Virus record (IMG/VR): IMGVR_UViG_3300036793_000060
Location: 13,090-77,089 of that record
Reading direction: 5' to 3' (one strand)
Length of the DNA stretch: 64,000 nucleotides
Source: a virus
Taxonomy: Duplodnaviria; Caudoviricetes
Position numbers and translations under genes: made by a program. Position 1 is the stretch's first letter. Each line of letters begins with the position of its first letter. Positions 2,507 to 28,866 of the stretch are shown piece by piece. The notes under the pieces are model-generated. The model saw only the letters and a program-made list of their open reading frames with translations. It was not told where the DNA came from and did not search any database.

Positions 2507-2590
2507 CGGGTCGCCCGGCAGCAGTGACAGGGGCGGGTCCGGGCAGGGTGCCAACGGGCCGCACAGCAAGCCGCCTACCGGCCGCCCGAA

Positions 2591-2785
2591 GTGAGCCTCA
2601 GGCGGCCAGCGGGCCGGGCGGGCACGCACCCGTCCGGCCCTGCGGGCACCCGCCCTCAGCGGGTGCTGACGATCGAGCGGGGACCATGCGGGTGCGCCAC
2701 GTGCGAGTGCACGTGCCTGACGCTTGCTTGGGTCTGCCCGTGCTGCAAGGCAGGGAGGCACGACGGGACATGCTCACCCCAGTGA
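2591..2785 (+). CDS. Possible small Cys-rich protein
   Basis: CGCATCECTC...CPCCK cluster; fills the gap before the resolvase. Confidence 0.35.
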   Translation: MSLRRPAGRAGTHPSGPAGTRPQRVLTIERGPCGCATCECTCLTLAWVCPCCKAGRHDGTCSPQ

Positions 2786-9584: not shown

Positions 9585-9678
9585 CAACAGCAGAACAGGG
9601 TCTCACCGCAAGGTAGGCGGGGGCAGTAAGGTTTCGACCTGAAGCCGCCGAGACGCGACTTGGCCCGTTCTGCTGCTG
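9585..9678 (+). ncRNA. Structured three-way-junction RNA (leader or sRNA) of unknown class
   Basis: Closing stem caacagcagaac/gttctgctgctg; inner gtctc/gagac; hairpin acc-GCAA-ggt; arm ggc-AGUA-aggu-UUCG-accu-GAA-gcc. Confidence 0.7.
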
Positions 9679-9719
9679 CAGAGGTAAGTGAGAGTCACTA
9701 CCAAGGAGAAGGCAAGGAA

Positions 9720-10973
9720 ATGGCACCACAGCTCATCGCCCGCAACGCGAGCGCGCAAGATCTGGTCGCCCTGCTCAACACGCAGAAGGCCGAGAAGCTC
9801 GACCTGGTCGTCCCGGCCGCCAACGTGTGGTCGAAGGACGGCAAGATCGTCGTCAAGAACGCCGAGCCGCAGATCACCGATGAGGGCGTCTCGACGGTCA
9901 ACGGCACCTACCGGCCGACCGAGGTCTTCGATGAGGGCCTGGCCAGCAAGCTGGAGATCCCGAGCAAGTACGTGCAGCGGCTTCGCGCCGACCGGCCCGA
10001 CCTGCTCGACGCCAACGTCAACGGCCTCCTTCACGGGCGGGCGCTGTTCGGCAAGGACGGCACGAGGACCGAGATATACCCGGCCGACACCCGAGCGTTC
10101 CTGCTCCGGCTGTTCCGGGGAGACGGCGGCGAGGGCGTTGCCCGCGCGATGCTGTCTGACCGGTACTCGCTCGGCATGGACAACCTGGACATGCTCACGG
10201 CGGTCATGAAGGGCGTGCAGGACGCGGGCGTGAACGTCATCACCCGCGTGTCCGACCTGTCCGAGCGCCGGATGCGGGTGCGGTTCGAGGCGCCCGACGT
10301 CTACACCCAGGCCCCTGGCCTGCTCGACGGCTACCGGTCCCCGTTCGACGGGGGCGGCGCGGTGCGCCGGGCCGGCAGCTTCAACGAGCTGCGCCAGCAG
10401 TACGGGCAGCACCACATCTTCAGCGAGAAGGACGCGCCGATCGCGTTCATCGGGTTCGACTTCACCAACTCCGAGACCGGCTCCGGGGCCTACACCCTGA
10501 CTCCCGTGATCGAGATGGTGCGGTGCACGAACGGCTGGGTGATGCGGAGGGAGGGCCTGCGCAAGGTCCACCTGGGATCCAAGCTGGAGGCCGGCAACGT
10601 CACCCCCAGCCTGGACACGCTCCGCAAGGCCGGCACGCTGGTCGCGGCCGAGACACGGGACGCGATCAAGCAGTGGCTGACCCAGGGGTACCTGGAGCAG
10701 CTGATCGCCAGCCTGACCGAGAAGGCGGCCACCCCGATCGCCAGCCCCGCGAACACGGTTCCGGCGGTCACCAAGAGCCTCGGCTTCACCTCCGAGGAGC
10801 AGGACGGCATCCTGGACCTGTTCATCAAGTCCGGCCAGCCCACCGCTGGCGGCGTCGCCCAGGCAATCAGCGCCTACGCCCAGATCGTCGAGGACCCCGA
10901 CCGGGCCTACGACATCGAGCTGAAGGCAGTCGACGGCCTCGATGAGGCCGCGCGGATCGGTGCCCGCGCCTAA
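9720..10973 (+). CDS. DUF932/DUF945-like phage protein
   Basis: RAMLSDRY..MDNLD, FDFTNSETGSGA, RCTNGWV, HLG pattern. RBS AAGGA before ATG 9720. Confidence 0.75.
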   Translation: MAPQLIARNASAQDLVALLNTQKAEKLDLVVPAANVWSKDGKIVVKNAEPQITDEGVSTVNGTYRPTEVFDEGLASKLEIPSKYVQRLRADRPDLLDANVNGLLHGRALFGKDGTRTEIYPADTRAFLLRLFRGDGGEGVARAMLSDRYSLGMDNLDMLTAVMKGVQDAGVNVITRVSDLSERRMRVRFEAPDVYTQAPGLLDGYRSPFDGGGAVRRAGSFNELRQQYGQHHIFSEKDAPIAFIGFDFTNSETGSGAYTLTPVIEMVRCTNGWVMRREGLRKVHLGSKLEAGNVTPSLDTLRKAGTLVAAETRDAIKQWLTQGYLEQLIASLTEKAATPIASPANTVPAVTKSLGFTSEEQDGILDLFIKSGQPTAGGVAQAISAYAQIVEDPDRAYDIELKAVDGLDEAARIGARA

Positions 10974-10990
10974 GCGCACCGCCAATGAGC

Positions 10991-11032
10991 GCAGCCCGTT
11001 CGGGATTCCCCCCTCCCGAGCGGGCTGCTTTC
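10991..11032 (+). terminator. Intrinsic terminator
   Basis: gcagcccgttcggga / tcccgagcgggctgc stem followed by TTT. Confidence 0.75.
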
Positions 11033-11039
11033 CATCTCG

Positions 11040-11579: not shown

Positions 11580-11839
11580 CCAGGACAGAGGGAACAGGGG
11601 ACGCGGACCAGGAGCGCCGGGCCATGATCGAGGCCGGTGAGCCGGCCAGCGACCTGGACCACGCGAGGGCCCTTGGCCAGCAGACGTGGGACACCGGCCA
11701 GCTGGCCAGTGACTTCGACGTCCTGCAGTTCGCGGCGCCGTTCGTGATCGCCCGGCGCAAGCTGGACGGCAAGGTGGGGAGCCTGGAGTTCACCCACCAC
11801 CCGCGCGTTTACTTCGGATGGCGGGAGCACCAGGAGTGA
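11576..11839 (+). CDS. Conserved small phage protein (WDT..L..DFDVL.FAAPFV..RRK.DG..GSLEF.H.PR.YF)
   Basis: GTGA overlap; recognisable conserved pattern of unknown function. Confidence 0.75.
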   Translation: MTRTEGTGDADQERRAMIEAGEPASDLDHARALGQQTWDTGQLASDFDVLQFAAPFVIARRKLDGKVGSLEFTHHPRVYFGWREHQE

Positions 11840-12246
11840 ACAGGGACAAGGCGATAACGCTGATCAACGGGACGACCTTCAAGCCGGGCTGGCGGTTCAC
11901 CGCCGGCCCAGGCGACACGTACACCGAGGTCGAGGTGACATATCACGTCGACACGATGGACACGTCGCTGCCGGACGCGATGGGCCGCTACGAGGTGCCC
12001 AAGCTGCTGGAGTCGGAGGTCACCTTCGACGTCAGCCGCCTGGCCGAGGGCGAAGTCCTCTACCGGCTGCTGCTCATGGCGGCAGAGCTGGACTCCCACG
12101 AGAATCGCGAGTTCCTGCGGGTCCGCGACGAGAACGGCAACTGGATGGCCCCCTTCCACCCCCACACGGGGATCGGGGAGGCGTCCTTCGAGGCGGCTAA
12201 GGAGCTGGCAGCCCGCGAGGAATACGCGCGGCTGGCACGTCGTTGA
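11836..12246 (+). CDS. Hypothetical protein
   Basis: GTGA overlap; coding bias. Confidence 0.7.
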   Translation: MNRDKAITLINGTTFKPGWRFTAGPGDTYTEVEVTYHVDTMDTSLPDAMGRYEVPKLLESEVTFDVSRLAEGEVLYRLLLMAAELDSHENREFLRVRDENGNWMAPFHPHTGIGEASFEAAKELAAREEYARLARR

Positions 12247-12770: not shown

Positions 12771-12806
12771 AGCAGGCCGGGGAATAACCCCCGGCCTGCT
12801 GGTGTT
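12771..12806 (+). promoter_or_regulatory. ECF-type promoter GGAAT-N18-GTT (12781-12806) inside a perfect 12-bp inverted repeat (12771-12800)
   Basis: agcaggccgggg aataac ccccggcctgct, followed by ggtGTTATAC. Confidence 0.75.
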
Positions 12807-12851: not shown

Positions 12852-13034
12852 ATGAACGACGACTACGACCTGACAGGCGCACTGATCGGACTCGATGAGG
12901 GCACGCTGGACGAGGACGCGGAGATCGCGCTTTTCCAGTACCTGATCGACAGCGGCCTGGCGTGGAAGCTCCAGGGCCGGATCGGTCGCCAGGCGGCGGA
13001 CATGATCGAGGCCGGGCTGGTGGCAGTCCGATGA
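12852..13034 (+). CDS. Conserved 60-aa phage protein (LFQYLIDSGLAWKLQGRIGR)
   Basis: Recognisable widespread phage pattern (G.AW.LQG.YGR). Confidence 0.8.
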   Translation: MNDDYDLTGALIGLDEGTLDEDAEIALFQYLIDSGLAWKLQGRIGRQAADMIEAGLVAVR

Positions 13035-13285
13035 GCGTGCGGAACTTCTGGATCGAGACGCAGGTAGACGGCCACGGCGGGATCCCCGCCACTGGCCCCA
13101 AGGCAGCCGACGGCGGGTTCACGTCCAAGTTCTGGATCCGCAAGGGCGGCGAGCATGCGGCAGTCCTCCGGCTGGAGGGCATGACCACGCACAACGGAGA
13201 CGTTGAGCTGTACGTGATCCCGTCCGAGGGCACTGAGATCGAGCGCCTGGACCACGGCGGGTTCGTGATCCGCAGCAAGCGCTAG
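13031..13285 (+). CDS. Small phage protein (RNFWIETQVDG...GPKAADGG)
   Basis: ATGA overlap; coding bias. Confidence 0.75.
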   Translation: MSVRNFWIETQVDGHGGIPATGPKAADGGFTSKFWIRKGGEHAAVLRLEGMTTHNGDVELYVIPSEGTEIERLDHGGFVIRSKR

Positions 13286-13396
13286 ACAACTGAGCAGCAG
13301 TGCCTCGCAACGAGCGACAGCCAGCCGACGCGAGAGGCGCGGATGAAGGGGGTAGGGGCCTGATCAGCCCCGGATCCTGGATCGCGGCGCCGGCAA

Positions 13397-13505
13397 GGGC
13401 GTGCAACTGCGCCGCTGACGTGCTGTAGACCCCAGTACGTTGGCGGCCAGGGACAGGAACCCGCGTGGTCAGCGGGGGCTGGTTCAATTCCAGCCGCGCC
13501 CACCA
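13397..13505 (+). ncRNA. tRNA-like RNA: acceptor stem, T-arm and ACCA, no D-arm, long central helix
   Basis: GGGCGTG/CGCGCCC 7-bp acceptor stem; GCTGG-TTCAATT-CCAGC T-arm; A-CCA end at 13502-13505; 15-bp helix 13411-13447. Confidence 0.7.
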
Positions 13506-13544
13506 GCCCCGCAGGGAGCGGGGTGCAGGTGATCGGAGAAGATC

Positions 13545-14006
13545 ATGGCGGTTGACAAGAGGGACATCGAGCACAGGCTCACGCAGCAGGTGCACGCCAG
13601 GAACATCAGGGCGTGGCGCCGGGCGCTGTGGGCCAGCTGGATGGGCGACGGGTACGAGGTCACCCCGTTCGGCGGCGAGTCCCTGGTCCTGAAGCCAGCG
13701 GAGGCCTACGCGCTCCTGGCAGGCATCGAGAGCGCGGTCGCGGCCGAGAAGTCGCGGCAGGATGCCGAGGCCAGGGCCAGGGCCGAGCTTGACGCCGAGC
13801 AGGCGGGCAAGCGCGCGGCCGAGGCCGACGCTGAGAACCTTGCCGTCGAGACGACAGGGTGCCCTACCTGCAAGGCCGAGCCTGGCCAGCGGTGCACCCG
13901 CGAGCAGGCCGACCCGACCCCGTACGCGGCTCACCCGCACGCTCCCCGGCTGGCAGAGGCCGGGGTCAGGGTCAGGCAGGCCAGGGAGGAAGTGTTCGGA
14001 CGATGA
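13545..14006 (+). CDS. Hypothetical protein with a CPxCxAxPGxRC zinc finger
   Basis: RBS GGAG; CPTCKAEPGQRC...H..R. Confidence 0.75.
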   Translation: MAVDKRDIEHRLTQQVHARNIRAWRRALWASWMGDGYEVTPFGGESLVLKPAEAYALLAGIESAVAAEKSRQDAEARARAELDAEQAGKRAAEADAENLAVETTGCPTCKAEPGQRCTREQADPTPYAAHPHAPRLAEAGVRVRQAREEVFGR

Positions 14007-28785: not shown

Positions 28786-28866
28786 TGTGACTCCTCGCGC
28801 CCGGTGCTGCCCGGTTGGAGCCGCCAGCCCCGCACCGGGCGGGCGGGACTGGCGGCGTTCTCGGCA

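Follow-up and report, generated by a model that had tools for sequence, protein, structure and literature searches.

Phages carry tRNAs which replace those cut by host defences. To our knowledge, few cases have been published in which a tRNA look-alike does not decode, namely RNA C and RNA D of phage T4 and the YrlA RNAs, and the roles of these RNAs are largely unknown. RNA C and RNA D of T4 have tRNA-like ends. They were described as stable RNAs of small size, encoded in the tRNA region of T4 and without a known role (PMC3014915). For YrlA of the actinobacterium M. smegmatis, the tRNA-like module, in which the acceptor stem has 7 bp, was shown to be cut by RNase P in vivo, and the product carries CCA (PMC4201824). 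A tRNA frame has also been used in engineered tRNA scaffolds, in which the RNA of interest is grafted in place of the anticodon arm (PMC3753655).

The phage RNA presented here is a real non-coding tRNA-shaped module of 109 nt, in which the half formed by the acceptor stem, the T arm and the CCA end is kept and the D arm is gone.

Genomic setting of the RNA

The RNA is encoded by IMGVR_UViG_3300036793_000060, an IMG/VR record of 77,089 bp with direct terminal repeats, which is estimated to be complete. The window, which is the whole stretch of 64,000 nucleotides that was analysed, comprises bases 13090-77089 of this record. The phage has a GC content of 65-72% (2-kb windows). In the left arm, genes for a Prim-Pol and a D5-type helicase are located on the - strand. 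A central block on the + strand codes for DNA polymerase A, an SNF2 helicase, a PD-(D/E)XK nuclease, an AAA_24 protein and Lsr2, and the right arm is again located on the - strand, with one large ORF showing a weak carbohydrate-binding match. No integrase was seen among the annotated large ORFs, and no other tRNA was identified by ARAGORN or RF00005 in the whole 77,089-bp genome. The marker protein encoded at 9660-10973 of the window, a DUF932-like protein (phrog_1362), has relatives in Arthrobacter, Mycobacterium and Gordonia phages with at most 45% identity. Since these relatives are actinobacteriophages, the host is therefore expected to be an actinobacterium, and the low identity implies that the phage has no close cultured relative.

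The RNA is located at 13397-13505 on the + strand, inside a gap of 259 nt (13286-13544) between two genes. It begins 111 nt past the upstream stop codon, and the next start codon is found 40 nt downstream of the RNA. The surrounding features are as follows:

12781-12806, + strand: nearest upstream promoter-like site, GGAAY-N18-GTT, before small gene(s), identified by the motif
13031-13285, + strand: upstream gene, coding for an 84-aa protein predicted to be all-beta (phrog_37977), GC3 0.91
13545-14006, + strand: downstream gene, coding for a 153-aa protein with a weak match to a phage zinc-finger family (PF24623), RBS 8 nt before the ATG
2318, 9549, 11040, 12219, 12781 and 13041, + strand: GGAAY-N18-GTW sites
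54577, 56901 and 58894, - strand: GGAAY-N18-GTW sites

In the 259-nt gap, the GC content is 0.66-0.71 in every frame, without codon-position bias, compared to a GC3 of about 0.9 and a GC2 of about 0.46-0.55 in the flanking genes. This flat profile between biased neighbours shows that the gap is non-coding. The part of the gap upstream of the RNA (13286-13396, 111 nt) had been called hairpin-rich; this description did not hold, since its folding is no better than that of shuffles (z -0.55).

The family of the 84-aa protein comprises about 330 representative clusters of proteins with 75-100 aa and a conserved motif RNFW...DG...GP...GGF. A confident all-beta model was predicted for the structure of the 84-aa protein (pLDDT 89). 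The protein was not assigned to a Pfam family, and the model has no fold match in the PDB. Inspection of the genomic contexts of its homologues revealed no such RNA behind them. For both proteins flanking the RNA, no relatives were found in the word-indexed database.

The GGAAY-N18-GTW motif had been flagged as an ECF-sigma-like promoter motif in the original prediction, and it is indeed enriched, with 9 sites in the window compared to 1.4 expected in shuffles; the site at 13041 is located inside a gene and may be due to chance. The site at 12781-12806 is the probable start of the transcript carrying the RNA, as judged from the motif. No sigma-70-like promoter was identified between this site and the RNA or flanking the RNA, and a terminator scan revealed no U-tract terminator on its flanks. 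From the sequence, the RNA would most likely be cotranscribed with its neighbours and then excised.

Fold of the RNA and comparison with RNA families

The original prediction had drawn a tRNA-like fold of 109 nt with a CCA end and without a D arm, and this drawing matched the sequence and the MFE fold base for base. The MFE fold is the same as the centroid fold. Its elements, together with the hairpin that follows, are these:

13397-13403, + strand: 5' strand of the acceptor stem, GGGCGUG, which pairs with 13495-13501 (7 bp, one U-G)
13404-13406, + strand: junction CAA of 3 nt, which replaces positions 8-9 and the whole D arm in the fold; no D stem can be drawn
13407-13450, + strand: long helix of 3 bp and, after a bulge at C13410, another 15 bp, three of them G-U, with the loop UAGACCC at 13426-13432
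13451-13459, + strand: linker GGACAGGAA of 9 nt, single-stranded in the fold
13460-13476, + strand: small hairpin CCCGC/GCGGG of 5 bp with the loop GUGGUCA (z -2.7)
13478-13494, + strand: T arm GCUGG/CCAGC of 5 bp with the loop UUCAAUU and a closing G-C at the G53-C61 position (sequence, fold)
13495-13505, + strand: 3' strand of the acceptor stem, CGCGCCC, followed by discriminator A13502 and the encoded CCA at 13503-13505 (sequence, fold, descriptor)
13506-13524, + strand: GC hairpin of 7 bp, which starts at the first base after the CCA and has no U tract (z -2.9; terminator scan negative)

The small hairpin at 13460-13476 is located at the position of the extra arm in class II tRNAs, separated from the T stem by 1 nt (one G), and is placed as the variable arm by the tRNA-Sec covariance model. 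It also resembles the extra arm of a tRNA-Leu-like gene at L109:3162-3242, which is described below. The GC hairpin at 13506-13524 would, in this model, either act as a terminator, though a weak one, or cap the 5' end of the downstream mRNA.

The whole RNA folds with -63.3 kcal/mol (z -4.32), and none of 200 shuffles folded as well. The reverse strand reaches -52.6 kcal/mol (z -1.9), which is 10.7 kcal/mol worse than the + strand. The three G-U pairs in the long helix and the one in the acceptor stem identify the element as a + strand RNA and not as a DNA palindrome; owing to its G-U pairs, the long helix was also missed by a DNA inverted-repeat finder. With these four G-U pairs included, all 35 pairs are intact, which argues against a decaying relic as well as against a palindrome on the DNA level.

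The long helix alone contributes -28.8 kcal/mol (z -6.4), and hairpins of similar or greater stability, mostly GC-rich, were found at 10 or more other sites in the genome. Very stable GC-rich hairpins, with -31 to -36.5 kcal/mol in 44-nt windows, are located at 10990-11033 (+), 2571-2614 (-), 28815-28858 (-) and others, at least 10 in number. The hairpin behind the DUF932-like gene, at 10990-11033 (+), ends in TTTCC and is terminator-like. For the tRNA frame, a descriptor was used which consists of a 7-bp acceptor, a 5-bp T stem with a TTCRANN loop, an abutting 3' acceptor strand and then NCCA. It identified a single match in the 77,089-bp genome, which is this RNA, and no match in 200 dinucleotide shuffles. 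The exceptional feature is the tRNA frame, not the long helix.

The RNA has the 7-bp acceptor stem of a tRNA on a 5-bp T stem, the UUCRANY T loop, the discriminator and the CCA. It lacks a D arm as well as an anticodon stem of 5 bp whose loop, 7 nt long, has U33 and a purine at position 37. ARAGORN reported 0 tRNAs and 0 tmRNAs (-m) in the window and in the whole genome, and nothing was found by Rfam at gathering scores. RF00005 (tRNA; threshold 29 bits) and RF00023 (tmRNA; threshold 47 bits) gave no match at E<=10 in the phage's own genome, in searches in which control sequences were detected. The view that the RNA is tRNA-like rather than a tRNA is therefore borne out by the absence of a D arm and a canonical anticodon loop and by the failure of ARAGORN and RF00005.

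In a permissive Rfam search of 311 nt, the best match was tRNA-Sec (RF01852), with 20.9 bits and an E value of 0.078 at a cut-off of 47, and the alignment was forced through the long helix. An assignment to tRNA-Sec was rejected, since the score is below the cut-off, the arrangement is 7/5 and not 8/5 or 9/4, and a UCA loop is missing.

The tRNA-like domain of tmRNA had been named in the original prediction as the closer likeness. In tmRNA, the 5' junction is formed by a D-loop analogue, about 12 nt long, and a class-II-like extra hairpin before the T arm has no counterpart. In the RNA, the 5' junction is 3 nt long and the extra hairpin is present, RF00023 gave no match at E<=10, and the permuted-tmRNA model RF04321 aligned with the T arm only (14.4 bits compared to a cut-off of 47), so that the likeness was not upheld. 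The lack of G3-U70 and of a tag ORF, which had been pointed out as well, was confirmed: G13399 pairs with C13499, and no tag reading frame is present. The suggested decoy for SmpB/tmRNA at ribosomes paused at UUA sites found no support.

A relation to YrlA and other Y RNAs was also rejected: no YrlA was among the matches with E<=10, a Ro60 (TROVE) gene is absent from the genome, and the Rsr motif of YrlA, GNCGAA(N)G as defined in PMC4201824, is absent from the 109 nt. With the Rfam covariance models, the RNA was classed neither as an ordinary tRNA nor as a tmRNA or YrlA.

In a tRNA, the stack of the D stem and the anticodon stem comprises about 10 layers. By comparison, the 18-bp helix is inferred to place its loop about 8 bp too far out for the decoding centre, and in this loop, UAGACCC, positions 33 and 37 are occupied by A and C, respectively. 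The loop of the small hairpin, GUGGUCA, offers U33, the triplet GGU and A38, yet it has G32 and C37. Since the small hairpin is separated by 1 nt from the T stem and by 9 nt from the long helix, a stacking of the D/anticodon type is not possible. We think that the 109-nt RNA, modelled in this way, would be unable to decode. Because a 5-bp stem with a 7-nt U33/R37 loop is lacking, a decoy for anticodon nucleases, another role suggested in the original prediction, is also unlikely. A tRNA interrupted by one insertion or intron was rejected: among 2,088 single-segment deletions, one gave an ARAGORN call, which was marginal (96 nt).

Relatives and other tRNA-shaped genes

No homologue of the RNA was found by blastn against INPHARED (50,697 phage records) or by an exact 29-mer search of IMG/VR. 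Three degenerate IMG/VR patterns covering the loops, the linker and the T loop, combined with a covariance-model screen, retrieved only ordinary or odd unrelated phage tRNAs. The covariance model, a single-sequence model built from this RNA, was applied to 5 related virus records as well as to about 180 loci, including 25 which were reached via the DUF932-like marker protein, and no homologue was identified there. The nearest relatives, which were reached via the DUF932-like protein, comprise 7 IMG/VR and 20 metagenome loci with a marker identity of 61-72%. The RNA is absent from them in the covariance-model search, both from the flanks and from the whole records, which implies that it is dispensable for the phage life cycle. 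No homologue with compensatory base changes was found in any of these searches. As far as the databases searched are concerned, the RNA is an orphan, for which no conserved family of its own was detected.

At one of the related loci (L003), homologues of the window genes 11818-12246 and 13545-14006 bracket the corresponding slot, which contains different small genes. The RNA is missing from this syntenic slot, and the homologue of the 153-aa protein, which is 41% identical, is present there without such an RNA upstream. Judged from this gene order, the 109-nt RNA is located in a variable accessory slot between conserved genes of a replication-gene operon.

The 21-mer consisting of the T arm and the 3' acceptor strand was identified in GTDB (one genome per species) only in four alphaproteobacterial tRNA-Val genes, which are identical to it. 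The same acceptor stem is present in an unrelated phage tRNA(CAU) at L182:6458-6534. By these sequence matches, the tRNA frame is Val/Met-like and ordinary, and it was not copied from any actinobacterial tRNA of known sequence. An attP origin from such a tRNA was rejected, since none of them matches the 21-mer in GTDB (one genome per species). An antisense target in the phage genome was rejected as well, the longest matches being 14 nt or less.

Several other tRNA-shaped genes were observed at the loci compared. In IMGVR_UViG_3300049574_000083, a distant relative, an 83-nt gene is located directly behind the DUF932-like gene (L034:1501-1583, which is the same as L007:2794-2876). It was identified as tRNA-Gly(GCC) by ARAGORN and scores 54 bits with the Rfam tRNA model, and its acceptor stem, D arm and T arm are normal. 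The place of the anticodon loop is occupied by 17 nt, which form an extra 6-bp helix with a CGCC tetraloop instead of a 7-nt loop. This gene is a second tRNA-shaped gene of the phage group with an over-long helix at the anticodon position, and a pattern scan of IMG/VR revealed no other copy of it. The tRNA-Leu-like gene at L109:3162-3242 has an acceptor stem, a GGAAUUGGUA-type D region, a long extra arm and a T arm, is apparently without an anticodon arm, and is not called by ARAGORN.

A 104-nt class-II-like tRNA-shaped gene with a CCA end, also missed by ARAGORN, heads a tRNA-Thr/tRNA-Arg array on three contigs (L117:5125-5228, L118:597-700 and L127:2822-2925, all on the - strand), with one base change among them. 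In the closest relative, IMGVR_UViG_3300043788_000078, the sole tRNA is a tRNA-Thr(CGU) with an encoded CCA. Direct repeats of about 55 nt, which contain a GC hairpin followed by TTTTC, are located on either side of it (L035:1440-1660, - strand).

Possible roles and known systems

The reading that we favour, tentatively and short of calling it probable, is that of a CCA-ended, non-decoding RNA, excised by RNase P from the replication-gene operon, which would serve as a mimic for a factor reading the acceptor end. The RNA would be transcribed jointly with the gene for the 84-aa protein from an ECF-type promoter at 12781. A cut by RNase P at G13397, predicted on the basis of the acceptor/T-arm stack, would release it, and its 3' end would be trimmed back to the encoded CCA, as is suggested by the RCCA end. 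It may then accumulate as a stable 109-nt RNA, protected through its tRNA-like ends. The long helix would extend about 8 bp beyond the length of stacked D and anticodon stems, so that its loop could not reach the decoding centre. As a free RNA, it might act in trans by occupying, or being consumed by, a host factor which reads the acceptor/T-arm/CCA end and ignores the anticodon, and which perhaps also reads the long extra arm. The RNA may be a decoy for factors which read the acceptor/CCA end.

The most concrete candidate targets would be abortive-infection toxins of Actinobacteria which act on the acceptor end, that is MenT/AbiEii nucleotidyltransferases, CCA-pyrophosphorylating toxSAS and tRNA-tail nucleases. 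The 3' ends of tRNAs are reported to be established immune targets. MenT3 was shown to recognise the CCA end together with the long variable arm and the distance between this arm and the T arm (PMC11541572). The 9-nt linker before the extra hairpin is unlike that of a class II tRNA, so that a mimicry of tRNA-Ser or tRNA-Leu could only be approximate. That the RNA is a dedicated anti-defence decoy, made in quantity as a sacrificial or sequestering substrate for MenT/AbiEii, toxSAS or tail nucleases, we consider improbable in this specific form. If this is true, no RNA decoy against defences attacking the tRNA 3' end would have been described before it.

The proposed mimic has to be weighed against readings in which the RNA itself has no function. 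It could be a punctuation mark acting in cis, where the tRNA shape serves only to recruit RNase P and 3' processing between the genes for the 84-aa and the zinc-finger protein, the excised RNA is functionless, and the hairpin at 13506-13524 stays on the downstream mRNA, whose 5' end it would protect as a cap. The location inside an operon, 111 nt past a stop and 40 nt before a start, the lack of an own promoter or U-tract terminator, and a GC hairpin which starts at the first base after the CCA are all consistent with this, and RNase P needs only the stack of acceptor stem and T arm, for which YrlA of M. smegmatis is the precedent (PMC4201824). For this purpose, however, a minihelix would suffice, which does not explain why an 18-bp helix, an extra hairpin and an encoded CCA are present, and the homologue of the downstream gene in L003 has a similar RBS context without such an element; we regard punctuation as unlikely, though worth keeping in mind. 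Rather unlikely is also a relic of a captured tRNA with a Val/Met/Ile-type acceptor and T arm, in which the region of the D and anticodon arms was replaced by hairpin-forming sequence and which is neutral and has not decayed. The ordinary sequence of the acceptor and T arm, with its matches to alphaproteobacterial tRNA-Val (21-mer) and to the acceptor stem of the phage tRNA(CAU) at L182:6458-6534, would fit such an origin, as would the lack of conservation in relatives and the abundance of stable hairpins in this genome. A neutral relic does not agree well with four intact helices having G-U pairs instead of mismatches, with the finding that no single deletion restores a tRNA (one marginal ARAGORN call in 2,088), or with the retention of a 259-nt non-coding gap in a compact genome.

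The remaining readings have much less in their favour. An unusual working decoder could use the small hairpin as its anticodon arm (GGU, Thr) next to a giant arm at the D position, or the long helix, presenting GAC (Val). The 5-bp stem, 7-nt loop, U33 and A38 of the small hairpin speak for the former, and the acceptor stem and A73 are Val-like; but G32 and C37 in the small loop, a spacing of 1 nt and 9 nt which bars D/anticodon stacking, A33 and C37 in a long-helix loop lying about 8 bp too far out, and the lack of any RF00005 match make a decoder very unlikely. Similarly remote is an element acting on the DNA level, such as an attP-like tRNA fragment, an origin or a protein-binding palindrome, or a chance fold. 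Phages often carry 3' fragments of tRNAs at attP. Here, both acceptor strands are present, the four G-U pairs would turn into mismatches if the other strand were folded, the descriptor has 0 matches in 200 shuffles, no integrase is seen among the annotated large ORFs of a genome with direct terminal repeats, and the 21-mer matches no actinobacterial tRNA. Least probable of all, and hardly to be expected, is a mimic of the tRNA-like domain of tmRNA which titrates SmpB or blocks trans-translation at paused ribosomes. It would account for the acceptor stem, the T arm, the CCA, the long helix and the missing D stem, and there is the weak alignment of the T arm with the permuted-tmRNA model (14.4 bits), but neither RF00023 (E<=10) nor ARAGORN recognises a tmRNA, G3-U70, a D-loop analogue and a tag ORF are lacking, and the extra hairpin is foreign to tmRNA.

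With only that half of a tRNA kept which is contacted by processing and 3'-end-reading enzymes, the RNA would, if expressed, be a compact natural probe of what host and phage factors need for the recognition of a tRNA, and a candidate counter-measure to defences targeting the acceptor end. As a single sequence for which no relatives were found, it is for now a clear-cut oddity that can be tested, and not a system that has been demonstrated.

With class II tRNAs (Leu, Ser, Tyr), the RNA shares the 7/5 stack of acceptor stem and T arm, the T loop, the discriminator, the CCA and a stem-loop located 1 nt before the T stem. It differs from them by the lack of a D arm, by an 18-bp helix with a non-canonical loop in place of the 5-bp anticodon stem, and by 9 unpaired nt before the extra arm. 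In common with the tRNA-like domain of tmRNA (RF00023, RF04321), the RNA has an acceptor stem, a T arm, a CCA and a long helix that emerges from the core, and a D stem is missing from both. It differs from this domain in that the G3-U70 pair, the 5' D-loop analogue, the pseudoknots and the tag ORF are lacking and the extra hairpin is present. Like the RNA, YrlA is non-decoding and has both a tRNA-like module and a long helix, which extends in the direction of the anticodon arm. However, YrlA is circularly permuted, so that it ends in the long stem, keeps the D arm, carries GNCGAA(N)G and adjoins the Ro60 gene, and none of these features is present in the RNA. RNA C and RNA D of T4 are likewise small, phage-encoded and non-decoding RNAs which are tied to tRNA-type processing, but they are part of a tRNA cluster of a T4-type coliphage and are likened here by their description and not by their sequence. 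In the engineered tRNA scaffolds, a foreign helix is also placed on a tRNA frame which allows processing by RNase P and at the 3' end and confers resistance to nucleases, with the difference that scaffolds are artificial and keep the D arm. By analogy, the way in which the 109-nt RNA would work is most like that of YrlA, T4 RNA C and RNA D and the tRNA scaffolds, while it is a member of none of these groups.
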